Assembly (NCBI RefSeq): GCF_004010195.1
Contig: NC_057719.1
Location: 11,972,002 to 12,036,001, forward strand
DNA length: 64,000 bases
Direction: 5' to 3'
DNA from: Chiloscyllium plagiosum
Lineage: Eukaryota
Shown here: positions 6,736-63,322 of the stretch, piece after piece
How the letters are laid out: the number at the start of each line of letters is the position of its first letter
Position numbering within the stretch: the first letter of the stretch is position 1
Position numbers and translations under genes: made by a program
Notes under the pieces: model-generated
The model's database searches: none
What the model saw: only the letters and a program-made list of their open reading frames with translations
What the model was told of the DNA's origin: nothing

Positions 6736-6770
6736 CTTGCCACTCAATAATTAGCAAGGCAGCCTGTGTG

Positions 6771-6993
6771 AGGAGAAAGTGAGGTCTGCAGATGCTGGAG
6801 ATCAGAGCTGAAAATGTGTTGCTGGAAAAGCGCAGGTCAGGCAGCATCCAGGGAACAGGAGAATCGACGTTTCGGGCATAAGCCCTTCTTCAGGAAACCT
6901 GGATTCCTGAAGGGCTTATGCCCGAAACGTCGGTTCTCCTGTTCCCTGGATGCTGCCTGACCTGCTGCGCTTTTCCAGCAACACATTTTCAGC
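6771..6993. mobile_element. Fold-back PLE family A mini-element inserted at the start of a CR1 fragment
   Basis: About 90-bp inverted arms (6806-6897 vs 6904-6993) plus an extra tail on the left arm; imperfect flanking duplication agcct(at)gtgtg. Confidence 0.85.
6866..6893 (-). ncRNA. Minimal hammerhead ribozyme core (PLE family A)
   Basis: CUGAAGA-A-GGGC uuau GCCC-GAAACGUC: both conserved boxes, stem II, palindromic ACGU in place of helix III, and a GUC cleavage triplet. Confidence 0.75.
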
Positions 6994-7985
6994 CTATGTG
7001 TGAAGCCACAGGAGATGGGGGAAATACTAAACAAGTATTTTACATCAGTGTTTACTGTGGAGAAGGGCTTGGAAGATATCAAATGTGGGGAAATAGATGG
7101 TGATTTTTTAAAAATGTCTGTATTACAGAGGAGGAAGTACTATAGGCCTTAAAACGCATAGAAGTGGATAAATCCTCAGGACCTGATCCTAGAACTCCGT
7201 GGGAAGCTGAGGAAGTGATTGCTGGGCCCCTTGCTGAGGTATTTTTATGATCAATAGTCACAGATGAGGTGCCAGAAGACTGGAGACTGGCTAACATGGT
7301 GCCAATATACAAGAATGGTGGTAAGGAAAAGCCAGGCAACTATAGATCAATGAGCCTGACATCGGTGGTGGGCAAGTTGTTGGAGGGAACCCGGAGAGAC
7401 AGGACGTACATGTATTTGGAAAGGGAAGAATTGATTAGGGATAGTCAACATTGTTTTGTGAGAGGTAATCATATCTCACTAACTTGATTGAGTTTTTTTT
7501 TGAAGAAGTAAAAAAGGATTGAGGTGGTCAGAGTGGTGATCTAGATGGACTTCAGTCAGGCGATTGACAAGATTCCTTATGGTAGACTGGTTGGCAAAGT
7601 TTAATCACGTGGAATACAGGGAGAACCAGCCATTTGGATACAGAACTGGCTCGAAGGTAGAAGACAGAGGGTGATGTTCGAGGATTGCTTTTCAGACTGG
7701 AGGCCGGTGACCAATGGTGTGCCACAAGGATCGGTGCTGGATCCACTGCTGTTCGTCATTTATATAAATGATATGACTGAACATAGGGGGTATAGTTACT
7801 AAGTTTGCAGATGACATCAAAATTGGAGATATAGTGGACAGCGAAGAGGGTTACCTCAGATTACAACAGGATCTGGATCAGATGGGTCAGTGCATTGCGA
7901 AGTGGCAGATGGAGTTTAATTTAGATAAATGTGAGGTGCTGCATTTTGGGAAAGTACATCTTAGCAGGACTTACACACTTAATAT
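6994..7985 (+). mobile_element. CR1/HER1-like LINE ORF2 (RT) fragment
   Basis: PEDWRLANMVPIYKNG...NYRSMSLTSVVGK, VPQGSVL and FADD motifs, with frameshifts. Confidence 0.92.
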
Positions 7986-12735: not shown

Positions 12736-12962
12736 ACAAAAAAAAAAACAAATTGCAAGGAAAATTCAGATCCGGCAATATCTCTAGACAGAAAGTGGAG
12801 TTAACACCTCAAGCCCAGTGACCCAGAACCCGTTCTGAAGGAGGGTCACTGGGCCTGAAGTGTCAATTCTGCTTTCTCCCCACAGATGCTGCCAGACCTG
12901 CTGAGTTTCCTCAATAATTTCTGTCTTTCTGATTTCTAACATCTGCAGTTCTTTGCCATTAT
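12736..12962. mobile_element. Fold-back PLE family D mini-element
   Basis: Diverged inverted arms around about 12825-12835, a decayed hammerhead-like ctgaaggagggtcactgggcctgaagtgtc, and a flanking 16-bp duplication with 2 mismatches (12720-12735 / 12963-12978). Confidence 0.65.
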
Positions 12963-24198: not shown

Positions 24199-24372
<174 letters not shown>

Positions 24373-24480
24373 TCATTAGGTCCTTCATGATGTCACAAAA
24401 TACTTCAATATCTGAAGCAAGCTAACTGCTGCTATACAGGTAGTCAAGGAGCTCCCACAAATAAGAACTCTGAACGAATC

Positions 24481-25177
24481 TTTTGGATGTAGATTTGCTC
24501 ACTGAGCTGAAAGGTTCACTTCCAGACATTTCATTATCCTACGAGGGAGCATCTTCAATGGGCCTCAGGCGAAGCAATACCGAAAATTCCTGCTTTCTAT
24601 TTATATCTTTGGGTTGGTGATGTCATTCCTGTGGTGAAGTCACTTCCTGTTCCTTTTCTCAGAGGGTAGTAAATGGGGTCTAACTGTGTGTTTGTTGGTA
24701 GAGTTCCGGTCGGAATGCCATGCTTCTAGGAATTCACGTGCGTGTCTTTGTTTGGCTTGCCCTAGGATGGATGTGTTGTCACAGTCGAAGTGGTGTCCTT
24801 CCTCATCCGTTCGTGAGGATACTAGTGAGAGAGGGTCATGTCTTTTTGTGGCTAGTTGGTGTTCATGTATCCTGGTGGCTAGTTTCATTTTTAAATTCGA
24901 CCGGAACTCTACCAACAAACAGAGTTAGACTCCATCTACCACCCCCTGAGAAAAGAGACAGGAAGTGACTTCACCACAGGAAATAACATCACCAACCCAA
25001 AGAAATCCAAACATTTTAAATAGAAAGCAGGAATTTTCAGCATTGCTTCGCCTGAGGCCCACCGAAGATATTACCTAGTAGGATAACAAAACGTCCAGAA
25101 ATGAACCTTGCAGCTCATCTAGCAAACCATATCCAAAACCTCAACCTGAGTTACAAATCTTCTCTAAACTCGTTAAG
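24481..25177. mobile_element. Fold-back PLE family C
   Basis: Minus arm 24481-24885 and plus arm about 24900-25175; TSD tgaacgaatc (24471-80) / tgaatgaatc (25178-87). Confidence 0.85.
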
Positions 25178-25385
25178 TGAATGAATCAGCCAATTCAAGG
25201 AAATGCAAGCTTAAGGATACAGATGAGCTCATAGCTTTGCTTCAATTATTGCTATGGGCATGTTAAGTCCATTTGAGCAAGAAGACTGGGTGTTAAGTTA
25301 CTAGCAAATTATTAGAATGTCAGCAAAATTATGTTAAAAATCACAACACCTGGTTATAGCCCAACAGGTTTAATTGGAAGCACAC

Positions 25386-25414
25386 TAGCTTTCGGAGCGA
25401 CGCTCCTTCATCAG
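25386..25414 (-). ncRNA. Minimal hammerhead ribozyme core (family B), PAPOLA-sense strand
   Basis: cac-CUGAUGA-A-GGAGC guc GCUCC-GAAAGCUA-gug: 3-bp helix I, stem II, palindromic AGCU and a CUA triplet. Confidence 0.8.
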
Positions 25415-25500
25415 GTGATTGTGAAGGGATCAATTGTAACAGAATTTGTAGCAAAAATATGCTATAAATTTTGTGTTACAATCGATCCCTCCACAATCAT

Positions 25501-25529
25501 CTGATGAAGGAGCGTCGCTCCGAAAGCTA
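25501..25529 (+). ncRNA. Minimal hammerhead ribozyme core (family B), plus-strand copy
   Basis: ctgatgaaggagcgtcgctccgaaagcta. Confidence 0.8.
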
Positions 25530-26091
25530 GTGTGCTTCCAATTAAACCTGTTGGACTATAACCTGGTGTTGTGTGATTTTTAACTTTGTACACCCCAGTC
25601 CAACACCGGCATCTCCAAATCATGAGCAAAATTATGGTACTCAAATCCTGAAGTGGTGCTGGAATTCTCATCCACAAATTGTTGGGTGGGGGGGCGGGCA
25701 TCAAGTTTGTTACTAATTGAGAAAATATAACATTCAACATATGTAAATATTTTCCTAAAATCAACAGCAAAGCTAGATTTATTCAGTATACCAAATTTGA
25801 GCTCACAGGTCAATGCCACCTCAGGAGAGGTTTGAGAGCATTTACACTTCTTGGCATATCTATTGCTCAATCTGTAGTACTTTCCAGAGGTATAGTCTTA
25901 ATTTAGTTTCCTTACCTGTGAATGCCCAAACCTACTGCATGTATTTAACACAACATACTTTAAATATCTGGCAGTTACATAATTTTAAACATCCTGTCAT
26001 TTGATTAATTCTCCGGTATGATTTCCAATTTCTTGGGAAGGATTACAAACTTTTTCCACTTGATTTACACAAGCAGCTTATTTACTAAATG

Positions 26092-27170
26092 GACAAAAAT
26101 CACAACACCAGATTACAGTCCAATGGGTTTATTTTAAAATAATAGATTTCGGAGCATTGCTCCTTCATCAGATGTTAGAGAAAGAGGCAGACCTTTGACA
26201 CAATTTATCAGGAAAAGATCAAACGGTCATGAAACTCATGTCAATGAATTGAACACACAAGATGACTCTTAAATCTTCAGTGAGAATGGAGGTGCAAGTT
26301 TTGATTCATTATATGCAAACCCCAGACTTTTTATTCCAAGTCACTGTCCTGAGCCAACTTCAGGTCTTAGCAATATAATGGTGGTGACACCACTGCTCAG
26401 ACAATGTATTTTAGGCATGAGGTTTTCATTCCTGAAGGGCTTATGCCAGAAACGTCGATTCTCCTGTACCCTGGATGCTGCCTGACCTGCTGCGCTTTTC
26501 CAGCAACACATTTTCAGCTCTGATCTCCAGCATCTGCAGACCTCACTTTCTCCTCAAAGATGTTTACACATTGTGTGTTGTTTGAACAAGACAATGTATC
26601 TACAAACAAAAATTCATTCTACAGCTGAGTGTGTGCACGTGCATGCATGAGAGCATGGGAAAATGTGCACACGCATGCGTATGCGAGAGAGAGGGTGAGA
26701 GCGAGTGTGCATGCGCACATAGTGGTAGTGGTGGGCCAGGGTGAGTGTGCGTGTGTGTTTGAGATGCACTGCAGGAAATAAAAGACAGATGCCAAACAAG
26801 ACCTCATGCCTGAAATACACTGTCTGACCAGAGGAGTCACCTTTATATTGATTACACCTTAAGTTGGCTCAAGGCAGTGACTTGAAAGAAATTCTGGGAT
26901 TTGCATATTAATCAATCAAAACCTGCACCTTCATTCTAAAGTTTTAAGAGCCATCTTATGTGCGTTCAATTCATTCGCATGAGTTGTATGACCCTTTGAT
27001 CATTTACTTATAAATTCTGTTTCTAAGGTTTTCCTTTCGCATGAACACCCTGATGAATAAGCAGCACACTAAAAGCTAGTGTTTTCAAATAAACCTGATG
27101 GACTATAATCTGGTGTTGTAAGATTTTTGATCTTGTCTAACCCAGTCCAACACCGGCTCCGCCGCATCAT
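26092..27170. mobile_element. Older, larger fold-back PLE family B with central GT/CA-rich simple sequence and a nested family A tail (about 26428-26555)
   Basis: Arms about 26092-26427 and 26800-27135 are diverged reverse complements sharing termini with 25334-25624; hammerhead-like core at 26143-26171 (-). Confidence 0.8.
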
Positions 27171-27288
27171 TTCCGAAACATGGTTACGGCCTTCACGGCG
27201 AAATCTCATCTATACTGTTTATTCCAAGTGGTAGTTGATATGATGTCGTACTGAACAAAACAAACCCCACTTAAATCACTGCCCTTAC

Positions 27289-27355
27289 CTTAATTTCACT
27301 GGTATCCCGGATCCACTCTTTAACTAAGCTATTAAGTTTTCCCAGAATTGCAATT
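27289..27355 (-). CDS. PAPOLA: PAPOLA exon 3 (67 nt): (R)IAILGKLNSLVKEWIRDTSEIK
   Basis: ttgcag acceptor and AAG|gtaagg donor; phase compatible with exons 2 and 4. Confidence 0.96.
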
Positions 27356-28254
27356 CTGCAAGATAAGGAGGCAATTAAACCTTCAATAAAATGTATCTCA
27401 AGTTTTCTTTTCAAAAAGAAAGATTGCTTCTCCTTTCATCATTTTACTTTATAATATTAAATACCTATAACAAGTGAAACTATTGTGGTCAATCCACATT
27501 TAATGAAAAATAAGTAGTGCTGTAAATGCTGAAGGGTTACAAACCATCACAGTCAACTTTCACGCAGACCTGATCTCATCAGTATTTGCAACAAGGCTTC
27601 CTTTAGTCACAACCTTGTGATATCATTTGGAAATAAGGCTTTGAGAAAGCCAATGCTCCAAATTAATTTTAAATCAAAAACTAATAGGGTCAGTCCATCC
27701 TGGATGGAGTCTGAAAGGATATCTACAGATTATAGAGCACAGATCATAACATATAGCAGCAGAATTAAGTCATTCAGCCCACCAAGTCTGCTCTGCCATC
27801 TGATCATGTTTCTCAACTCCATTCTACTGCCAGTGCTGGAACTTTTGATCCCCTTACCACTACAACTTGAGGTATAAAGCTTCCTAGAACATGCAGATTC
27901 TTCCCAAATTATAGCAATTTGGGCCAACATCCTCTCATTGCTACAATATGTACAAATTAAATTGCACAGCTTTCACAAAGCAGAACACATTACATTAAGA
28001 ATTTAAGAAAAGATCGAGTCAGTCAAACACACAATCTTTCAAAAAATAACCAACACCACAATCCACTTCTGGTTTGAAATCAATCTAACAGACTGATCTA
28101 AAGAAAGTTTTGGCATTGGCATGTTAGAGGGGAAAGTCAGATTAAAAGTCAAAGCAATTATTCACCTGGACATTTATTTTTAATTCCCTCAAAATACAGA
28201 TATCAGTAGTAAGCTGAAACTTGCCTGGGCCTTGTTGCCAAAAAGAAAGGTGTT

Positions 28255-28772: not shown

Positions 28773-29237
28773 TTTAATCCCATTGTCTAGTCCAGTATTT
28801 TGACCCAGCGACAGAATGTTGTGAATGTCCAAGTCAGGACATTGCGTGACTTGAAGGCAGTGTTCCTATGCACCCGCTACTTGGGAATTTATTGTTTTCA
28901 AGACATGGCAAGCTGCTTCAGGGCTCAGGTGGAAAAGACAGTATAAATAATAGATTAAAAGCATGGTAAAATGGCAAAACAAAGCACCCTCTAAAATGTT
29001 AAAAACCTAAGAGCATTAACTAAAACAGGAATAACAACACTTTTTATCTGGTGGAATATTATTCTAGACCCGAGGGGACTAGAAAAGGTCAAGCTACAGC
29101 AATATAAAATCAGAGTAAAACCACACTTGGAGTGTCAGCAGTTCTAAGCATTATACTTCAGCAGAGGTATACTTGCCTTGGATAAGGTGCAGTGAATAAT
29201 CAACAGAACGTTGTTTTTTATTCTTTAGTTTGATATC

Positions 29238-30472
29238 ACATCTGTCGTCTGCAAGGTGTTAGAAAGGATTCTGAGGGATAGGATTTATGACCATCTAGAA
29301 GAGCATGGTTTGATTAAATGCAGTCAACACGGCTTTGAGAGGGGCAGGTCATGCCTCACAAACCTTATCGAGTTCTTTGAGGATGTGACTAGAAAAATTA
29401 ATGAGGGTCGAGCTGTGGATGTGATGTATATGGACTTCAGCAAGGNNNNNNNNNNNNNNNNNNNNNNNNNNNNNNNNNNNNNNNNNNNNNNNNNNNNNNN
29501 NNNNNNNNNNNNNNNNNNNNNNNNNNNNNNNNNNNNNNNNNNNNNNNNNNNNNNNNNNNNNNNNNNNNNNNNNNNNNNNNNNNNNNNNNNNNNNNNNNNN
29601 NNNNNNNNNNNNNNNNNNNNNNNNNNNNNNNNNNNNNNNNNNNNNNNNNNNNNNNNNNNNNNNNNNNNNNNNNNNNNNNNNNNNNNNNNNNNNNNNNNNN
29701 NNNNNNNNNNNNNNNNNNNNNNNNNNNNNNNNAATTTGAAAGCTGGGTACAGGATTAAGGATAGGATTCTTGGCAGTGTGGAGGAACAGAGGGATCTTGG
29801 TGTGCAGGTACATAGATCCCTTAAAATGGCCATCCAAGTGGACAGGGTTGTTAAGAAAACATGTGGTGTTTTGGCTTTCATTAACAGGGGGAATGAGTTT
29901 AAGAATCTTGAGATCTTGTTGCAGCTCTATAAAACTTTGGTTAGACCGCACTTGGAATACTGCGTCCAATTCTGGTCACCCTAATATAAGAAAGATGTGG
30001 ATGCTTTGAAGCGGGTTTACCAGGATGCTGCCTGGACTGGAGAGCTTATCTTATGAAGAGAGGTTGACTGAGCTCGGACTTTTTTCATTGGAGAAAAGGA
30101 GGAGAAGTGGGGACCTAATTGAGGTATACAAGGTAATGAGAGGCATACAAGGTAATGAGAGGCATAGATAGTGTCGATAGCCAGAGACTATTTCCCAGGG
30201 CAGAAATGACTAACACGAGGGGTCATAGTTTTAAGCTGGTTGGAGGAAAGTATAGAGGGGATGTCAGAGGCGGGTTCTTTACACAGAGTTGAGAAAGCAT
30301 GGAATGCGTTGCCAGCAGCAGTTGTGGAGGCAGGGTCATTGGGGTCATTTAAGAGACTCTCGACATACATATGGTCACAGAAATTTGAGGGTGCATACAC
30401 AAGGATCAGTGGTCGGCACAACATCGTGGGCTGAAGGGCCTGTTCTGTGCTGTACTGTTCTATGTTCTATGA
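29238..30472 (+). mobile_element. CR1 LINE 3' portion (spans N-gap 29446-29732) with (gttctat)n-type tail
   Basis: QHGFERGRSCLTNLIEFFE and RPHLEYCVQFWSP motifs. Confidence 0.92.
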
Positions 30473-31629: not shown

Positions 31630-31845
<216 letters not shown>

Positions 31846-39351: not shown

Positions 39352-41025
39352 AGGCTTTTAGTAAAGTGATATGCTCTTCTTGGCAGGTGTGAAAGTTTAG
39401 GGAGAATGTGTGTATGTTACTGAGGATTTTATCTGCAATAAATACCATTGGTTGCGAATTCTATCAGATCGAATGGATCGCTTGAAGAGAGAGGCAGTGA
39501 GGAATTTACAAGAGCAAGGGGATGTGATGGATGGTAGTTACAGGAAGGGAGAAAGGTTGCAGATACAGTCACATAGATGGGTCGAGTTCAGGAAAGGTAG
39601 AGGGGTATGCAGGTAGTGCAGGAGTCTTCTGTGGCTAACCCCATTTCAAGCTGTTTTGGAAAATGGAATCTCTTCTAGGATAGACATGACCTGTACAAAA
39701 AAGGACAGATTGCACTTGAATTGGAAGGGGACTAATATAAGGCAGGGCAGGTGACTGAGGTGTCAGTGGGGGAGCACTTTGGGGCCAGCAACCATAAGTC
39801 TATTATTTTTAATATAGTGATGGAAAAGGATAAACTAGATCTAAAAGTTGAAGTTCTAAATTGGAGGAAGGCCAAGTTTGATGGTATTAGGCAAAAATTT
39901 CCAAAAGCTGATTGGGGCAGGTAAAGGGATGGCTGGAAAATGAGAAGCCTTCAGAAATTAGATAGAGATTCCAGTGACAGTATATTCCTGAGAGGGTGAA
40001 ATGAAAGGCTTGTAGGTGTAGGGAATGCTAGATGGACTAAAGACATTGAGGGTTTGGTTAAGAAAAAGAAGGAAGCATATGTCAGGTATAGACAGGATAG
40101 ATCAAGTGAATCCTTAGAGTATAAAGGCAGTAGGAGTATACTTAAGAAGGAAATCAGGAGGGCAAAAAGGGGACATGGGATAGCTTTGGCAAATAGAATT
40201 AAGGAGAATCCAAAAGGTTTTTACAAATACATTAAGGGCAAAAGGGTAACTAGGGAGAGAATAGGGTCCGTCAAAAATCAGCAAGGTGGCCTTTGTGTGG
40301 AGCCGCAGAAAAAGGGGGAGATACTAAATGAGTATTTTGCATCAGTATTTACAGTGGAAAATATAGAATGTAGGGAAACAGATTATTACATTTTAAAATG
40401 TCCATATTACAGAGGAAGAAGTGCTGGATATCTTGAAACACAAAAGTGGATAAATCTCCAGGACCTGATCAGGTGCACCAGAAACTCAATGGGAAGGTAG
40501 GGAAGTGACTGCTGGGCCTCTTGCTGAGATATCTGGATTATCAATAGACACCTGTGCCAAAGACCGGAGGTTGGCTAACACTGTGCCACTGTTTCAGAAG
40601 GGTGATAAGGACGAGCTAGGGAACTATAGACCAGTAAGCCTGACGTTGGTGGTGGGCAAGTTGTTGGAGGGAATCCTCAGGGACAGGATGTACATGTATT
40701 TGGAAAAGCAAGGACTGATTTGTGCGTGGTAAATGTCTCACAAACTTGAGTTTTTTTTAAAAAGTAACAAAGAAAGATGATTGATGAGGGCAGAGCAGTG
40801 GATGCAATCTATATGGACTTCAGTAAGGCATTCGACAAGGTTCCCTATGGGAGACTGGTTAGCAAGGTTAGATCTCATGGTATACAGGAAGAACTAGCCA
40901 TTTGGATACAGAACTGGCTCAAAGGTAGAAGACAGAGGGTCGGATCAGAGGGTTGTTTTTCAGATTGGAGGCCTGTGACCAGTGGAGTGCCACAAGGATC
41001 GGTGCTGGGTTCACGACTTTTCATC

Positions 41026-41061
<36 letters not shown>

Positions 41062-41990
41062 ATATATATATTTGGAGGTATAGTTTGTACATTTGCAGGT
41101 GACACCAAAATTGGAGGTGTAGTAGACAGCGAAGGTTACCTCAGATTACAGCAGGATCTTGATCAGTTGGGCTAATAAGTGACAGATGGAGTTTAATTCA
41201 GATAAATGCGAGGTGCTGCATTTTGGGAAAGCAAGTCTTAGCAGGACTTATACACTTAATGGTAAGGTCCTAGGGAGTGTTGCTGAACAAAGAGATCTTG
41301 GAGTGCAGGTTCATAGCTCCTTGAAAGTGGAGTCGCAGGTAGATAGGATTGTGAAGAAAGCGTTTGGTATGCTTTCCTTTGCTGGTCAGAGAATTGAGTA
41401 CAGGAGTTGGGAGGTCATGCTGCGGCTGTACATGTTAGGCCACTTTTGGGATATTGTATGCAATTCCGGTCTCTTTCCTATCAGAAAGGTGTTGTAAACT
41501 TAAAAGGGTTCAGAAAAGATTTACAAGGATGTTGACAGGGTGGGACGATTTGAGCTATAGGTAGAGGTTGAATAGGCTGGGGCTGTTTTCCCTGGAGCTT
41601 CGGAGGCTAACGTGGCCTTATAGAGGTTTATAAAATCATGAGGGGCATGGATAGAATAAATAGACAAAGTCTCTTCCCTGGAGTGGGAGAGTCCAGAACT
41701 AGAGGGCATAGTTTTAGGGTGAGGGGGGAAAGATATGGGAAAGATCTAAGGGGCAATGTTTTCACGCAGAGGATGATACATGTATGGAATGAGCTGCCAG
41801 AGGAAGTGGTGGAGGCTGGTACAATTGCAACATTTAAAAGGAATCTGGATGGATATGTTATTAAGAAGGATTTGGAGGGATATGGGCTGGGTGTTCTCAG
41901 GTGAGACGAGATTGGGTTCGGTTATCTGGTTGGCATGGACAAGTTGGTCTGAAGGGTCTGTTTCTGTGTTATACACCTCTATGACTCTAT
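39352..41990 (+). mobile_element. Long, internally deleted CR1/HER1 LINE (ORF1 bits, ORF2 RT, 3' UTR)
   Basis: [37 protein letters not shown] and KCEVLHFG motifs; frameshifted. Confidence 0.92.
41029..41070. repeat. (TA)n microsatellite inside CR1 RT
   Basis: tatatata... run visible directly. Confidence 0.95.
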
Positions 41991-44121: not shown

Positions 44122-44385
44122 GCGTTGGATTAAGCCATTTAGGGCCATGAAGAACTTTTTTTCACTTGGGATGAAACTCTTCACTCTGGAATACTCTACC
44201 ATGGAAAAAGTAACGGAAATAAATTACTGAATGGGTTAAGGAATAAATACATAGCTACATACATAAATACATACATAGGGACAGAGCAAGAATCTAATGT
44301 TGAGGTAGAGAACTAGACATGATTGTATTGAATGCCAGATCAGATAAAATGGGCCAAATGGCCTACTCCTATTACCTATGTTTTT

Positions 44386-45809
44386 GCAAGGTTTGTAGTT
44401 CAGGTTGAGGTTTAGGGTGTAGGTTTGCTCGCTGAACTGTAAGTTTGCTATCCAGACATTTCATTACCTGGCTAGGTAACATCATCAGTGGCGACCTCCA
44501 AGTGAAGCAAAGCGGTTGTCTCCTGCTTTCTATTTTTATCTTTCTCCTGGATGGGGTTCCTGGGGTTTGTGGTGATGTCATTTCCTGGTTGTTTTCTGAG
44601 GGGTTGATAGATGGTATCTAGATCTGTGTGTTTGTTTATGGCATTGTGGTTGGAGTGCCAGGCCTCTAGGAATTCTCTGGCATGTCTTTGCTTAGCCTGT
44701 CCCAGGATAGATGTGTTGTCCCAGTCGAAATAGTGGTTTTCTTCTTCCGGTGTGTAAGGCTACGAGGGAGAGAGGGTCGTGTCTTTTTGTGGCTAGCTGG
44801 TGTTAGTGTATCCTGGTGGCTAACTTTCTTCCTGTTTGTCCTATGTAGTGTTCCTGGCAGTCCTTGCATGGAATTTTGTAGACGACGTTGGTTTTGTCCA
44901 TGGGTTGTACAGGGTCTTTTAAGTTTGTTAGTTTTTGTTTGAGAGTGTTGGTGGGTTTGTGTGCTACTAGGATTCCGAGGGTCTTAGTAGTCTGGCTGTC
45001 ATTTCTGAAACTTCTTTGATGCATAGGTGGTTAGGGTTTCTGGCTGTGTTTGGTCTGCTTGTCGTGGTTTGTTCTTGAGGAACCTGCGGACTGTTTTTTT
45101 TTGAGTATCGGTTCGTCTTGAATACGTTGGAGAGGTGGTTCTCCTCTATTTTCCGACGTTCGTCTATGCTGCAGTGTGATGTGGCTCATCAACAACACCC
45201 TCACAGGTATAAAGTTCACCAAGGAGGAAGAAACCGACAACAAACTTGCATTCCTGGACGTCACAGTCGAAAGAAAGGACAATGGAGAACTACAAACCTG
45301 CGTATACAGAAAACCGACAAACACTGACCAAATACTTAACTACACCAGCAACCATCCCAACACACACAAACAAAGCTGTATCAGAACACTATTCCAAGGA
45401 GCCACATCACACTGCAGCACAGACGAACTTCGGAAAACAGAGGAGAATCACCTATACAACGTATTCAAGAAGAACGGATACTCAAAAAAAAATACAGTCC
45501 GCAGATTCCTCAAGAACAAACCACGACAAGCAGACCAAACACAGCCACAATTCCTAGAGGCCTGGCACTCCAACCACAACACTATAAACAAACACAGATC
45601 TAGATACCATCTATCAACCCCTCAGAAAACAAACAGGAAATGACATCACCACAAACCCCAGGAACCCCATCCAGGCCAGACATATAAATAGAAAGCTGGA
45701 GACAACAGCTTCGCTTCACTTGGAGGTCACCACTGATGATGTTACCTAGCCAGGTAATGAAACGTCTGGATATCAAACCTACAGCTCAGTGAGCAAACCT
45801 ACACCCTAA
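44386..45809. mobile_element. Young fold-back PLE family C with RT C-terminus and GIY-YIG endonuclease
   Basis: Minus arm encodes NVVYKIPCKDCQEHYIGQTGRKLATRIH; plus arm encodes LAFLDVTV...VYRKPT...SNHP; TSD acctatgttttt at 44374-44385 and 45810-45821. Confidence 0.92.
45733..45766 (+). ncRNA. Minimal hammerhead ribozyme core (family C); mirror copy at 44455-44488 (-)
   Basis: cca-CUGAUGA-U-GUUACCU agcc AGGUAAU-GAAACGUC-ugg: 3-bp helix I, 7-bp stem II, ACGU palindrome and GUC triplet. Confidence 0.8.
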
Positions 45810-47015
45810 ACCTATGTTTTTATGAAACAGTAATTTCTCTGGAATAGTCAGCAGTCTGAATTAATCTGTACAAAAGAACTTCATTTAATTTCTGGAGATT
45901 AAACACATTTAACAAAGCACAGCTTTGTCACCATTCACTGAGCATGGCTGACAAACAAAAACTCATGAAATTCTGGTCATGTAGAATGCCTTGCATTAAC
46001 ATGGGCAAATGAACCCAAACATGTTTCTTTTTAAAAAGTACCCAAGAGTATTGCATCAAGTATAATTAAACCTTATGCTGAGGTGAGTCAGAAAATAGAA
46101 ACATGTCACTATTGCAACAAGGGTGCATAAGAACATCACATAAAAAATACTGCCTAGCATTTATCATACCCAATAAGCTCCCAAAAATATGGTGAAATGG
46201 TAGAATTGGACGTTCAAATGAACAGACTATTTATGAGCATGTGCAATCCCAATAATTGAAAGTGTGACCTCCATAATGAACAGAACCCCAAAACGAAATG
46301 TTAATTTCCTGCTAATACCTCAAAGAACTACCTCAGTATTGCATGTTTTAAAGTGCTTATTGCAACAAGTGATTAAAAGCATGTTTTACAAAACTTTCAA
46401 AGCAGGTAGAAGTTATATGAAGTGATCCTCGTGTATCAATGATGACACTATGGAATTACAGCCCTGGTTGCAAACAATGCTGGCAGCTTTCAATAACTTC
46501 CCAAAGATGCTTCACCAAGTAGTAACTTTGACTGCCTACAAGCATTTTCCTGTATTTTTGAAAAGTTCCTTAAATCCACCACAAAGTAAATCTGACTCCC
46601 CAGATAATTCTCTCTGCTCATGCCAGAACACCGCCTAGAATCCATAAAAGACTGCAAGTTGTACCTCTGAAAATAAAGACCTCCTTCCTCTCAGTCGGCT
46701 GTGATAACTGGCAAAGTCAAGCAGCCTTTTCTCTCTCCTGTCCACACAAAAAAAACCTAAAATAGATCTCAGCCAAGTTACAAATCAGGAACGAAGACGC
46801 TGATGTTTTTCTTGACAGAAGCTTTATTCTATTGCATGGTGTTCTCAGTGCTCCAGTTATCCTTTTCTTATACTCTTGAAAAAGAGCAAAATCAGGTCTT
46901 AGTGCTCAAAAATAATTAAACTACCTAACTGACAAGACATTAACTTATTTCAGATATCCAGATTTGTAGGAATCTCTTAAAAAGATCCCTCTTCAGCCTG
47001 GCAACGTGAAATATT

Positions 47016-47236
47016 CGGAGAAAGTGAGGACTGCAGATGCTGAAGATCAGAGTCAAACAGTGTGGCGCTGGAAAAGCACAACAGGTCAGATAACAGCCGA
47101 TGAGCAGGAGAATCGATGTTTCAGACATAAGCCCTTCAGCAGCCCTGATGAAGGGCTTATGTCCACAATGTCAATTTTCCTGCTCCTTTGATGCTGCCTG
47201 ACCAACTGTGCTTTTCCAGCACCACACTTTTCAACA
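47016..47236. mobile_element. Fold-back PLE family A-like mini-element
   Basis: Inverted arms around about 47142; perfect TSD gtgaaatatt at 47006-47015 and 47237-47246. Confidence 0.85.
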
Positions 47237-47281
47237 GTGAAATATTAACCTTGCCTCCTGGTAGAAATACTAACTAGTTAT

Positions 47282-56652: not shown

Positions 56653-57736
56653 AAGGTTTTCAAATACTAGTTTCACAATCTTTTATGCCCACCTGGTTCA
56701 GTTCAGTTGACTGGACAGCTGATTTGTGATGCAATCTGACGCCAATAGCAAGAGTTCAAGTCCTGCACTAACTGACTATGAGGAAGTCTCCTTTTCAATC
56801 TCTCCCCTCACCTGTGGTGGTGACCCTCAGATTAAACCAGACCTGACGTCTCTATCAGAATATACACCTATGGGCTGGTAAGACTAAGGACTCTTCACTT
56901 TTATTGCTTCAAAACCGACTAATACTGGAAAATTAGTTATTTTCAGAATAAAAATAGCTACATGGATTAAAAGGGAGACAAATGTTCTCCTGCTGCATGT
57001 CAAATTTCCTTAAAGGCAGCATGCCCACTTATACAGAGTTTTTGCAGCAAGAGCAGAGCGGCGCACATCACTGCCCGTTCTACTGGTTTCAATTAAGATT
57101 GCTTCCAAAGGTCATCATTTTAAACTTGCCAGGACGTGGACATACCCTTTTGATTATATTATCAATTATACGAAGGGTGTGTGTTTTAGAACAAAGAATG
57201 TGTGTCTGGGAAGGAAACAGCGTTTCAACAAGCAGAATTTTGGCAATTCGGTGTTTTAAAATAACCAACGCGGCGATTTAAAACGGGTTCACTCCGAATA
57301 GAAATCGTGGCCGACAAGATTGTAAATCCGAACCAGTCACAGAAAATGCCGTCTATTACCGAGGGATAAAGCGTTTCAAATACTAAAGGAAACGTACTGA
57401 AAATTGTGCCGATAGAGAAATAAAACCACATCACCCCCTCTCCCCAACAACACACACGAGCGAATAAAACATCCAGTTAGTGACAGATAAGCATTCTGCT
57501 CGTTAAACAACGGCAAATTAAAATCGAAGACCAAGTATCCGGCGTTGCGGCGGGTGAAAGGCCTGATCGCGGGGGCGGGGGGTGGTGAGGGCGAAAGGCC
57601 TGAACTCCGGTGGGTTTTAAAAGGCCTGGACGCGGGGGCGGCCTACCGGCTCCTGGGGGCGGGTGAATGACTGCAGTCGCCTCCAGCAGCGGGCCCTCTC
57701 TCTCCCCGATCCCTGGCTCACCATCACGGTACTCAC

Positions 57737-57744
57737 TATGGCAT
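57737..57744 (-). CDS. PAPOLA: Poly(A) polymerase alpha, coding exon 1 (ATG CCA TA|gtgagt)
   Basis: Minus strand reads gccgagccATGCCATA followed by the strong donor GTGAGT, with good Kozak context, inside a CpG island. It splices in frame to exon 2 to give MPYPAANPGS..., resembling the vertebrate PAPOLA N-terminus MPFPVTT. Confidence 0.9.
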
Positions 57745-57778
57745 GGCTCGGCCCGGCTCCGTTCCACTTCCACTATCC

Positions 57779-57805
57779 CTAACGGTCGCCGAGGTTCACT
57801 TTCAT
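57779..57805 (-). promoter_or_regulatory. Upstream ORF 2 (MKVNLGDR*)
   Basis: caaggATGAAAGTGAACCTCGGCGACCGTTAG, ending 34 nt before the main ATG. Confidence 0.5.
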
Positions 57806-57996
57806 CCTTGCGCCCCCGAGATTGATTCTTTCCTTTCCTTTTCCTGAGCGGGAAAATAAAATCGCTCCTTCGGATGTCGAAGGAATTTCTGCCCCCCCAC
57901 CCCAACTACCGTTATGTCTTTGATTTTAAACTCGCCCCGCCTTTTGTTGTGTCCCCAACGCCGACGGCACCCTCTTCTCCCTCCCTTGCTCCTCCT

Positions 57997-58023
57997 TTAC
58001 AACAAAGCAGCCGGTCCCAACAT
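57997..58023 (-). promoter_or_regulatory. Upstream ORF 1 (MLGPAALL*) in the putative PAPOLA 5' UTR
   Basis: gtcgccATGTTGGGACCGGCTGCTTTGTTGTAA, with a purine at -3, about 280 nt upstream of the main ATG. Confidence 0.6.
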
Positions 58024-58276
58024 GGCGACAGACAGACAAAAACAACAAACCCGCCGCAGCCAGCACCAGCCGGCTCGGCGACCTCGGCGCCGCCTTCCCC
58101 CTTCCGTCAGCGCGCGCACGACGCCATGCGCGCCGCGTCCGTACGTCGCTGGACGCCCCCAGCACGCATGCGCACTTACACGTAAGGCTGTCGGGAAATT
58201 CTGTACATCGCCAACACCAAGGAGCTTGCGCATTTACAGCCCTTTTGCGCAAGCTCCTTAGTGCTTTTCAGCTGCA

Positions 58277-58889: not shown

Positions 58890-59070
58890 AATAGGAATTG
58901 CTGGAGAAACTCGGCAGGTCTAGCAGCATCTGTGGAGAGAAAACAGAGCTAAGGTTTTGAGTTCAGTGACCCTGATTCAGAACTCTTTACTGACTGAAAA
59001 TTAACTTTGCTTTCTTTCCAGAGATGTTGCCAGACCTGTTGAGTTTCACCAGCAATTTTTGCTTTAGTTT
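58890..59070. mobile_element. Fold-back PLE family D mini-element
   Basis: aattgctggagaaactcggcaggtctagcagcatct... mirrored by ...agatgttgccagacctgttgagtttcaccagcaatt. Confidence 0.7.
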
Positions 59071-59544
59071 CATTCTTTTTTCCTATTATTTCAATAATAA
59101 TTTGAAACTTACTCTTTGACCCTTAGAGTTGAAGAATAGTTTAAGGCTTAAACCTGAAATCGGTTCAACAAGCGCTCTCTCCGAGTTCATTATCCTCTCT
59201 TGAACTAACCTCTAAGTAAATGTCCCACTTTCAGGACCTTTGACATTGCCAGCTAATCAGAAACAAAAACAAATAACTGGAAATGCTCAGCAGCATCTGT
59301 GAGGACAAATCAGAGTTAACATTTGAGTACGGTGACCCTTCCTCAGACTTGATGATAGCTAGGAAAACGCCAATTTTTATGCAAAACACATATCGTGAGG
59401 GGTGGGGGTAAGAAGTAAATGATAGGTGCGGATTGAGCCCAAAAAGAGAGAGAACAGTTGGACAGACACAAGAGTGGATAACGATCTGGCTAGGACGGTG
59501 AATAGCTGTTAATGGACACTGTTACTGGCTTACAATGGGTAATA

Positions 59545-60241
59545 ATCTTCGAGGAGAAAGTGAGGACTGCAGATGCTGGAGATCAGAGCTGAAAATGTGT
59601 TGCTGGAAAAGCACAGCGGGTCAAGCAGCATCCAAGGAACAGGAGAATCGACGTTTCGGGCATAAGCCCTTCTTCAGGAATGAGGAAAGTGTGTCCAGCA
59701 GGCTAAGATAAAACGTAGGGAGGAGGGACTTGGGGGAGGGGCGTTGGAAATGCCATCGGTGGAAGGANNNNNNNNNNNNNNNNNNNNNNNNNNNNNNNNN
59801 NNNNNNNNNNNNNNNNNNNNNNNNNNNNNNNNNNNNNNNNNNNNNNNNNNNNNNNNNNNNNNNNNNNNNNNNNNNNNNNNNNNNNNNNNNNNNNNNNNNN
59901 NNNNNNNNNNNNNNNNNNNNNNNNNNNNNNNNNNNNNNNNNNNNNNNNNNNNNNNNNNNNNNNNNNNNNNNNNNNNNNNNNNNNNNNNNNNNNNNNNNNN
60001 NNNNNNNCTACCTGACCTCTCCGCCCCCACCCCACTCTGGCCTATCACCCTCAACTTGACCTCCTTCCACCGATGGCATTTCCAACGCCCCTCCCCCAAG
60101 TCCCTCCTCCCTACCTTTTATCTTAGCCTGCTGGACACACTTTCCTCATTCTTGAAGAAGGGCTTATGCCCAAAACGTCGATTCTCCTGTTCCTTGGATG
60201 CTGCCTGACCGGCTGCGCTTTTCCAGCAACACATTTTCAGC
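59545..60241. mobile_element. Young fold-back PLE family A (N-gap 59768-60007 in the centre); intact hammerhead core at 59650-59677 (-)
   Basis: Inverted arms; perfect 14-bp TSD tacaatgggtaata (59531-59544 / 60242-60255). Confidence 0.88.
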
Positions 60242-60275
60242 TACAATGGGTAATAGCAGACTATATGATAACAAG

Positions 60276-60445
60276 AAGAAAGTGAGCTTTGCAGATGCTG
60301 GAGACAAAACATATGGTGTTGGAAAAGCACAGCCGGTCAGGCAGCATCTGAGGAACAGGAACGCTCGAAATGTTGACTCTCCTGCTCCTAGGATGCTGCT
60401 TGACCGGCTGTGGTGTTCCAGCACCACACTTTTTGACTCTTTATG
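60276..60445. mobile_element. Short fold-back PLE family A-like element
   Basis: TSD tgataacaag (60266-60275 / 60446-60455); inverted arms. Confidence 0.8.
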
Positions 60446-60794
60446 TGATAACAAGGCATGATGTGTGGTGTCTAGGACATAGAAGAGTTCAAGCTCTAAA
60501 GTTAATGAAGTCGATATTGAGTCCAGAAGGCTGCAGGCCTCCCAAGTGGAAAATGGTGTTGTTCTTTCAGAATATGTTGAGCTTCACTGGAGCACTGCAG
60601 CAAGCCTGAGGCAGAGATATTGGGCGTGGAACAGGCTGAAGTGTTGAAGTGGCAGGCAACTGGAAGTGCAGAGTCATTTTTGCAGGCAGAACGTGAAGTG
60701 GTCACTCAGTCTGTGCTTCATTTCCCCAATGTAGAGAAGATCACATTGTGAGCACCAAATGCAGTACACTAGATTGTGTGAAGTGCAGGTTCGT

Positions 60795-61118
60795 GGGCGG
60801 GACGGTGGCACAGTGGTTAGCACTGCTGCCTCACAGCGCCTGAGACCCGGGTTCAATTCCCGCCTCAGGCGACTGACTGTGTGGAGTTTGCATGTTCTCT
60901 CCGTGTCTGTGTGGGTTTCCTCCGGGTGCTCCGGTTTCCTCCCACAGTACAAAGATGTGCAGGTCAGGTGAATTGGCCATGCTAAATTGCCCGTAGTGTT
61001 AGGTAAGGGGTAAATGTAGGGGCATGGGTGGGTTGCGCTTCGGCGGGTCAGTGTGGACTTGTTGGGCCAAAGGGCCTGTTTCCACGTTGTAATGTAATCT
61101 AAAATCTAATCTAATCTA
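60795..61118 (+). mobile_element. Young HE1-like V-SINE
   Basis: Intact B-box (ggttcaattcc), retained CpGs and an (aatct)n tail. Confidence 0.92.
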
Positions 61119-61799
61119 AAGCACTGATTCACCATGAAAGGTATCTTTGGGCCCTTGGATACTGAGGACAGAGGAGGTAAATGGGCTCAGGTTTGTTGTA
61201 GTGGTCCAATGAAGCTCAGCCTAAACTGGAAGAACAACATCTCATTCTCCACTTGGGGAGCCTGCAACCTTCTAGACTCAATATTGAGTTCAATATCTTT
61301 AAGGTTTTAAAACTCCTATGTCCTAGACTTCACCCCACACATCATGCCTTGTTATCACATTGTCTGCTATTACACACAAGCCATTGTTAGCCAGTAACAG
61401 TCTCCATTAATAACTATTCACCCTCCGAGCCAGACCATTATCCACTCCCTCTTTGGGCTCTATCTCCACCTATCATTTACTCCTTACCTCTTTCCCCCAC
61501 CCCATGTCCTGCATAAAAATTGACATTTTGCTTACTATAATCAGTTCTGGGGAGGGTCATCAGTTTCTGATTTCTCTTCACAGGGGCTGCCAGACCTGCT
61601 GAGCATTTCCAGCAATTTCTCTTTCTAATTTTGTTCCTGATTTACAGCATCTGCAATTCTTTTGGTTTTAATGACCTCAAAATCCTTGTCATGTCAATCA
61701 CAAATAAGGTACTCTGATCACTTATTGTCACTTTTTGCACCTCCTTTGGTACCTACCCTTGAAAAAAAAATTCCCCCATTTCAATTAGAACTACCACAC

Positions 61800-63322
61800 A
61801 TGAAGCCACTATTTGAGAGGAGTGGGAAGGACAAGCCAGGGAACTATAGGCCAGTGAGCCTGATGTCGGTGGTGGGTATGTTGTTGGAGAGAATCCTTAG
61901 GGACTGGATGTACATGTATTTGGAAAGGCAAGGACTGATTAGGGATAGATTAGAGGAGTGCCGGAAAAGCACAGCAAGTCAGGCAGCATCCAAGGAGCAG
62001 GAAAAGGGACGTTTCGGGCAAAAGGCCTTCATCAGGAATGTAGGGTAGTCAACATGGATTTGTGCATATCTGACAAACTTGACAGCATTTTTTGAAGAAG
62101 TAACAAAGAGGATTGATGAGGGCAGAGCTGTGGATGTGATCTATATGGACTTCAGTAAGACATTTGACAAGGTTCCCCATGGGAGACTGGTTAGCAAGGT
62201 TAGATCTCATGGAATACAGGAAGAACTCGCCATTTGGATACGGAAATGGCTCAAAGGTGTAAGACAGAGGGTCGGGGTGGAGGGTTGTTTTTCAGACTGG
62301 AGGCTTGTGACCAGTGAAGTGCCACAAGGATCGGTGCTGGGTCCACTACTTTTCATCATTTATATAAATGATTTGGATGTAAGCATAAGAAATATAGTTA
62401 GTAAGTTTGCAGATGACACCAAAATTGGAAGTGTAGTGGACAGCGAAGAAGGTTACCTCAGATTACAACGGGATCTCGATCAGATGAGCAAGTGGGCTGA
62501 GAAGTGGCAGATGGAGTTTAATTTAGATAAATGAGAGGTGCTGCATTTTGGAAAAGCAAATCTTAACAGGACTTTTACACTTAATGGTAAGATCCGAGGA
62601 GAGGATAGAGACCTTGGAGTGCAGGTTCATAGCTCCTTGAAAGTGGAGTTGCAGGTTTATAGGGTGGTGAAGAAGGCGTTTGGTATGCTTTTCTTTATTG
62701 GTCAGAGTACTGAGTACAGGAGTTGGGAAGTCATGTTGTGGCTGTGCAGGGCATTGGTTAGGCCAATTTTGGAATATTGCATGCAATTCTGGTCTCCTTC
62801 CTATTGGAAGGATGTTATGAAACATGAAAGGGTTCAGAAAATGTTTACAAGGATGTTGACAGGGTTGGACAATTTGAGCTATAGAGAGAGGTTGAATAGG
62901 TGAGGACTGTTTCCCCTGGAGCATCACAGGTTGAGGGGTGACTTTATAGAGGTTTATAAAATCATGAGGGGCATGGATAGGATAAATAGACAAAGTCTCT
63001 TCCCTGGGGTGAAGGAGTCCAGAACTAGAGAGCATAGGTTTAGGGTGGGAGGGGAAAGATACGAGAAAGATCAAAGGTGCAACCTTTTCTCGCAGAGGGT
63101 GGTACATGTACAGAATGAGCTGCCAGAGGAAGTGGTGGAGGTTAGTATGATTCCAACATTTAAAAGGCATCTGGATGGGATTATGAATAGGAAGGGCTTG
63201 GAGGGATTTGGGCCGGGTGCTGGCAGGTGCGACTAGATTGGATTGGGATATCTGGTCGGCGTGGATGAGTTGGACTAAAGGGTCTTTTTCCGTGCTGTAC
63301 ATCTCTCTGAACTCTATGACTC
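61800..63322 (+). mobile_element. CR1/HER1 LINE 3' half with nested PLE family A tail (about 61948-62040, minus)
   Basis: YMDFSKTFDKVPH, PQGSVLGPLLFIIYINDL and KFADDTK motifs. Confidence 0.93.

Follow-up and report, generated by a model that had tools for sequence, protein, structure and literature searches.

The window, by which we mean the whole 64-kb stretch of DNA analyzed here, carries on its minus strand exons of a poly(A) polymerase alpha-like gene. The exons were located by known motifs and then confirmed by means of their splice ends and Pfam; those at 31631-31801, 27289-27355, and 24213-24294 (minus strand) have AG/GT ends and match the Pfam domain PAP_NTPase in order. A candidate first coding exon of 8 nt has its ATG at 57744 (minus strand), inside a CpG island (57000-58250), and would give the host gene a first intron of ca. 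26 kb. The preliminary description had placed the element studied here in intron 3 of PAPOLA. Exon order agrees with intron 3, whereas PAPOLA itself is likely rather than certain, given that the best solved-structure match of the product, poly(A) polymerase alpha (73.3 bits), came only narrowly ahead of gamma (70.4 bits). This 3-kb intron holds three fold-backs (24481-25165, 25322-25636, and 26094-27170) as well as a fragment from a third family, nested at ca. 26426-26560. The features needed below, with the element parts named according to the interpretation that we favor, are as follows.

24295-27288, minus strand: intron 3 of the poly(A) polymerase alpha-like host gene, placed by exon ends and Pfam order
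25322-25333, no strand: left copy of the target-site duplication (TSD) AGCAAAATTATG, an exact repeat
25334-25456, sense on the minus strand, as is the host gene: left arm, the inverted, tail-less PLE 3' end
25369-25374, minus strand, sense to the host gene: ATTAAA polyadenylation-signal hexamer of the left arm; poly(T) loose ends lie before 25354 in family RNA reads
25383-25417, minus strand: minimal type I hammerhead of the left arm, core starting at 25414, predicted cut after 25386
25450-25461, plus strand: fold-back junction AGCAAAAATATG, identical to the TSD at 11 of 12 positions and at single-copy depth in run X1
25460-25584, plus strand: right arm, the direct PLE 3' end, reaching the first family end site (loose-end piles at 25582-25587)
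25498-25532, plus strand: minimal type I hammerhead of the right arm, core starting at 25501, predicted cut after 25529
25541-25546, plus strand: ATTAAA hexamer of the right arm (AATAAA in many family copies), followed by family poly(A) at 25558-25561 and then a GU-rich stretch
25585-25624, plus strand: PLE tail of 40 nt, on the right side only, reaching the second family end site (loose-end piles at 25621-25625)
25625-25636, no strand: right copy of the TSD AGCAAAATTATG, an exact repeat
26094-27170, no strand: an older insertion from this family, sister to the insert, with arms of ca. 333 bp, a right tail, a different junction, and no significant TSD left

The element is a 291-bp insert (25334-25624) bracketed by a TSD that is exact at 12 of 12 positions, nine of them A/T, i.e., a short duplication of an AT-rich site. 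None of 150 random position pairs reached its TSD score of 12 (the best was 8). The arms (25334-25453 against 25460-25583) align over 120 columns with seven substitutions and two 2-nt gaps, leaving an unpaired loop of 6 nt (25454-25459). The layout is thus that of a truncated inverted PLE copy and a direct copy joined head to head. Its predicted fold (-193.8 kcal/mol, z = -24.7) was not equaled in stability by any of 200 shuffles, and the insert had no entry among the long open reading frames (ORFs) of the window (search floor, 110 amino acids). These measurements bear out a fold-back of about 290 bp with a perfect 12-bp TSD and a short loop, as originally described. The arms do have the length given then, ca. 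120 bp, although "near-perfect" applies loosely to sequences ca. 91 to 94% alike, and the unpaired tail is indeed confined to one side but measures 40 nt instead of ca. 38.

In order to examine the insertion beyond the window, contigs or reads from four of 24 listed public runs were aligned to positions 25180-25780 at 88% likeness: X1 (organism A), X5, and X13 (organism B), all used as contigs, and X21, a poly(A)-selected single-cell RNA run. An assembly or library artefact was a natural concern, since the window is a draft with three N gaps and assemblers have trouble with inverted repeats. An artefact would nevertheless have to account for the seven substitutions and two gaps between the arms, as well as for the exact TSD. 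A contig in X1 is identical across 25601-25780, although X1 may be the source of the window itself and is not independent support. In X13, one contig (25180-25356, seven other letters) runs from the left flank through the TSD and 23 nt into the insert, another (25605-25780, two other letters and seven gap letters) runs from the right flank through the TSD and 20 nt in, and a further contig carries a 3-nt deletion inside the junction. We consider an artefact extremely improbable, and the possibility raised in the preliminary description, that the inversion is a product of assembly, can be set aside. Because the two X13 contigs reach 23 and 20 nt into the insert, below our 31-letter rule, the insertion is likely, rather than proven, to be shared with organism B. 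The arms have diverged (7 in 120) about twice as much as organism B has from the window (9 in ca. 346), a ratio that fits insertion before the split, provided that the two arms started out identical.

Two hammerheads arranged back to back had been reported, and their cores were found at 25501 (plus strand) and 25414 (minus strand). Both arms give the same parse, CTGATGA A GGAGC-GTC-GCTCC GAAA GC TA, with the conserved core, one additional A following A9, a 5-bp helix II that opens with G-C (G10.1-C11.1), and GAAA-GC-UA, in which an AGCU palindrome (15.2-16.2) takes the place of helix III; the proximal helix I has 3 bp. The accessible text of PMC4209133 describes PLE hammerheads as minimal, thought to act as dimers and weak in vitro, and notes hammerhead pairs ca. 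100 to 700 bp apart on opposite strands. As far as that text goes, the motifs of the insert share with those hammerheads the core, the extra base after A9, G10.1-C11.1, the palindromic 15.2-16.2, and the lack of helix III; they differ in the 5-bp helix II, in the 3-bp proximal helix I, and in their burial, in both arms, within a duplex of 120 bp. The statement that either strand yields one intact hammerhead therefore holds at the level of the sequence, and there for the core, given the missing helix III and the short proximal helix I. In a predicted fold, however, the motif is buried by its antisense: within the insert, the active fold could be forced only at a cost of 66.9 (plus strand) and 63.8 (minus strand) kcal/mol, compared with 5.1 and 11.1 kcal/mol for single arms. 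Prefixes ending just past the cut site had similar costs. Since the hammerheads face outward, the antisense arm is transcribed first on either strand and would bury the motif that follows. Self-cleavage at this locus is thus predicted to be off and appears unlikely, and the hammerheads are probably passengers in the insert.

Rfam gave no hits at the gathering score across the 64-kb window, and the 14 subcutoff hits obtained at E values up to 10 included no hammerhead model. We discarded these 14 (11 miRNA hairpin models, one bacterial sRNA, and two of snoRNA type) as generic hairpin matches. The exact hammerhead pattern had no match in metagenome, prokaryote-genome, or viral contigs, a result that is uninformative for an animal repeat. 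A further hammerhead-like core, unlike the families described here and possibly due to chance, lies at 27582 (minus strand), just upstream of host exon 3.

Non-LTR retrozymes are comparable in that they are short, noncoding, hammerhead bearing, and of similar size, but retrozymes are repeated in tandem, head to tail, and carry canonical hammerheads through which circles are released (PMC7229834). The minimal motifs of the insert lie on opposite strands and are unable to excise a monomer, and we rejected a retrozyme identity.

Self-comparison of the window provided 11 fold-backs for examination. A clear TSD of 10 to 14 bp together with a one-sided tail was present in five (the insert itself, 44374-45821, 47006-47246, 59531-60255, and 60262-60455); in two the TSD was borderline, and in four it was not significant. 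The sister insertion at 26094-27170 lies 460 bp from the insert and is 78% alike to it; its translation contained no recognizable ORF, nor was any coding remnant recognized in the insert. The fold-back at 44374-45821, with a 12-bp TSD and a left tail, is a PLE of another family. In its right arm is what remains of a reverse-transcriptase end, containing an internal jump and matching HTH_animal clusters at an Atlas score of 0.97, and its left arm retains a GIY-YIG-like remnant (Atlas, 0.96, with a family share of 10%; Pfam E = 0.1, below the cutoff). Because it belongs to a different family, it ties the anatomy, and not the family of the insert, to PLE proteins. No coding sequence of the insert's own family was found, so that its PLE membership depends on the anatomy, the hammerhead, and these neighbors of other families.

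Several other elements of the window deserve mention. The fold-backs at 6760-7000, 47006-47246, and 60262-60455 are short, near-symmetric hairpins of another hammerhead family (180 to 240 bp, left tails). Two nearly adjacent fold-backs occupy 59531-60455, with TSDs of 14 bp and 10 to 14 bp, the first of them with a central N gap. Those at 12767-12900, 58896-59057, and 60443-61360 are older and have no significant TSD, and a weak GIY-YIG match (E = 0.21) was present at 60677-60820 (minus strand). Decayed LINE-type reverse transcriptase fragments, recognized by eye in translations, are located at 29229-29981, 40000-41172, and 61641-63233.

The anatomy of the insert has close precedents. According to the accessible text of PMC8557442, PLE insertions are often 5' truncated, often carry an inverted truncated 5' copy, and often have a tail of 30 to 40 bp at one end, and PMC3846280 includes a rotifer PLE copy (Pen2a_Av) whose ends are inverted, with a tail of 31 bp and a TSD of 9 bp. 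In common with the EN+ PLE insertions of these two sources, the insert has head-to-head inverted truncated and direct ends, a one-end tail of this size, a hammerhead in the terminal repeat, and a short TSD (8 to 10 bp there and 12 bp here); it differs from the cases in those excerpts in being a hairpin only, with no ORF between the ends, and in its TSD-like loop. In an alga, newly arisen PLE insertions had a median length of 128 bp (PMC9977147, in its accessible part). The insert is, in short, a further copy of a known PLE fold-back pattern with nothing remaining between the ends, and the supplementary figures of PLE papers may already show hairpin-only copies. Within the titles and abstract openings searched, mostly outside subscription papers, we found no description of the insert's PLE family.

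This family is very large. In X1, 89,468 contigs aligned to 25180-25780, and the summed contig depth rose to 8.16 million in the right arm, against 3.7 to 12 in the flank bins that were covered (some left-flank bins had no coverage). These sums are not copy numbers, some records and joints are uncounted, and no listed contig spans the whole insert. In all three contig runs, the ends of family contigs piled up at 25582-25587 and 25621-25625 (2,549 contigs at four such positions in X1), and the sequences beyond them were unlike one another and AT rich (agreement of ca. 0.35). The piles are the tail-less and tailed ends of the family; the two sites are 40 nt apart and match two published reverse-transcription start sites. 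Fold-back joints were also diverse: the 15 listed fell at many different positions, most in one to six contigs per run, and 571 more exist. No empty-site joint was among these 15.

MITEs are short, noncoding elements whose inverted repeats form both termini and abut the TSD, and their copies are uniform in length. The insert is likewise short and noncoding, with inverted arms and a TSD, which would suit a MITE of a DNA transposon in which a hammerhead-like sequence arose by chance. The 40-nt tail between the right arm and the TSD, however, breaks the terminal symmetry, the TSDs of neighboring fold-backs vary from 10 to 14 bp, and the arms derive from a retroelement. Family copies, moreover, end at two sites, are truncated at many points, and are not uniform in length; they show many different joints, and the sister copy has longer arms. 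A MITE is therefore hardly credible here.

A second possibility, put forward in the preliminary description, is a self-propagating nonautonomous hairpin, in which the whole 291-nt unit would be transcribed and then put back into the genome by a PLE enzyme, so that one loop would recur in many copies. Nonautonomous PLE derivatives do exist (PMC8557442, accessible text), and the unit retains the 3' end, the tail, and a poly(A) signal. In organism A, however, the junction had a depth of 3.91 at 25448 and 12.5 at 25453, level with the unique flanks, above which an amplified junction should rise, while the arms reached millions and many other joints were present. The single-copy depth together with these other junctions points to an independent truncation and not to a self-amplifying unit. 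In X5, the depth of 87.6 at 25448 came from a single contig that carries a family letter and ends 11 nt away. In X13, the junction (25448-25453) reached 219 against flanks near 15; the contig with the 3-nt deletion, at 25453, contributes 12.3 of this depth, and the remainder, although unexplained, may be a one-arm family contig. A few other family joints are at high depth as well. The resemblance of the loop to its own target site, the different junction of the same-family neighbor, and the poor template that a 120-bp duplex would presumably make also weigh against this unit copying itself, which we regard as very unlikely. The other reading offered in the preliminary description, an extremely 5'-truncated PLE insertion, is supported by the single-copy junction, the two family ends, and the published PLE anatomy.

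A broader version of the idea applies to the family instead of this insert: some junctions might have been retranscribed and reinserted whole, making a MITE-shaped but retrotransposed class. Behind it stand the X13 junction depth and the joint from 25416 to 25565 (19 letters between), with depths of 319 in X1 and 186 in X5, where single-copy sequence has ca. 4 to 12. We consider it improbable, though less so than self-propagation of the insert. The high-depth joints are possibly amplified junctions, or subfamily structure, or library effects. Three further joints, with depths of 824 to 2,107, were almost exclusive to X5.

Altogether, we interpret the insert as a one-off, dead-on-arrival EN+ PLE insertion of which the last 125 to 165 nt are left on each side, with a probability of roughly 0.88. 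As to how it formed, its polarity is informative. After the left TSD, the top strand is antisense from the tail-less site, and at the right TSD, the bottom strand is antisense from the tail end, an arrangement that fits two-nick priming directly. At an AT-rich site, the PLE enzyme would cut the two strands with a stagger of 12 nt, and either nick would then serve as primer for copying the element RNA into cDNA from one of the two start sites. The top-strand cDNA would start before the tail and the bottom-strand cDNA at the tail end; both would stop after 120 to 165 nt and then be joined head to head. We think that the insertion probably arose in this way. The protein of a lizard PLE (Poseidon of green anole, PAc), which prefers AT-rich DNA, cuts both strands and extends each of them, with reverse transcription from two RNA sites bracketing the tail (PMC11167929). 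The insert resembles that system in its two end sites bracketing the tail, its AT-rich target, its RNA-internal start sites, and a hammerhead upstream of them; the mechanism was followed in vitro there and is inferred here.

The main rival to two-sided priming keeps the same PLE origin but has the cDNA fold back at a short palindrome and prime itself, with the endonuclease trimming at the tail site, which yields an identical final anatomy. Palindromic inverted junctions were so interpreted in the available text of PMC3846280, and the tail was taken to result from endonuclease resolution in that of PMC8557442. The arms of the insert, which stop within ca. 6 nt of one element position, are as expected from such folding, and the neighbors at 6807-6993 and 47056-47231 are also symmetric; these near-symmetric, short-looped junctions fit self-priming at least as well as two-sided priming. 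In the fold-back at 24481-25165, however, it is the tail-less arm that is the longer, reaching ca. 170 bp deeper into the element, which a fold-back copy of the tailed cDNA could not do unless a deletion followed. Extension of both strands in vitro (PMC11167929, accessible part) also favors two priming events, and self-priming seems to us a doubtful origin for the junction step.

The loop offers a further clue, one absent from the preliminary description. With up to one mismatch, the only matches to the TSD across the window were its two copies and the loop 12-mer at 25450-25461. Such a match is rare: 12-mers matching the junction zone equally well numbered 7 of 62,969 in the window and 6 of 12,260 AT-rich ones. 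A preformed, traveling hairpin is not expected to match its latest target, and the TSD-like loop thus favors assembly on site. The first seven bases of the 12-mer are antisense element sequence and its last two are the start of the right arm, so that the junction sits at homology between element and target. Under two-sided priming, the top-strand cDNA could have stopped at the point where its end (AGCAAAA) agreed with the target overhang facing it, been extended there by a small number of target bases, and then joined the second cDNA. We advance this target-templated step tentatively, at somewhat less than even odds. The TSD AGCAAAATTATG is quasi-palindromic by eye, and a decayed palindrome would explain the loop with two changes versus one. 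None of five other TSD-bearing fold-backs tested in the window had a TSD-like junction (best, three to six mismatches), which rules out such a loop as a general rule.

Finally, we looked at family RNA in X21, of which ca. 2 in 100 reads were read. Among the 2,538 reads aligned, 99% continue into unlike sequence, 81 are at least 99% alike, and none lie on the flanks of the insert; these reads are family transcripts from other loci. The poly(A)-selected library is unsuited to a cleavage test, and no pile of read beginnings or ends was seen in it. Nor do the reads give grounds for claiming RNA editing, as A>G and T>C places did not outpace those of C>T and G>A. Poly(A) followed 25558 (281 reads) or 25561 (381 reads), 12 to 15 nt beyond the hexamer at 25541-25546 and before the GU-rich stretch, and 120 reads had the mirror image, before 25354. 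A functional poly(A) site thus seems to be present in the family, and as it lies upstream of both reverse-transcription start sites, presumably read-through RNA alone could serve as the template. At the locus itself, the predicted duplex argues against the left-arm ATTAAA truncating the host transcript.

Taken alone, the locus is of minor importance, an old remnant, probably neutral, of a family with very many copies. It is nevertheless a clean record of PLE integration, a process still called unresolved in the accessible PLE literature. The ends 40 nt apart, the 12-bp stagger, and the TSD-like loop are features on which two-sided priming and self-priming can be tested over thousands of copies. 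Through such inserts, host introns also acquire a duplex of 120 bp and a poly(A) signal pointing in either direction.
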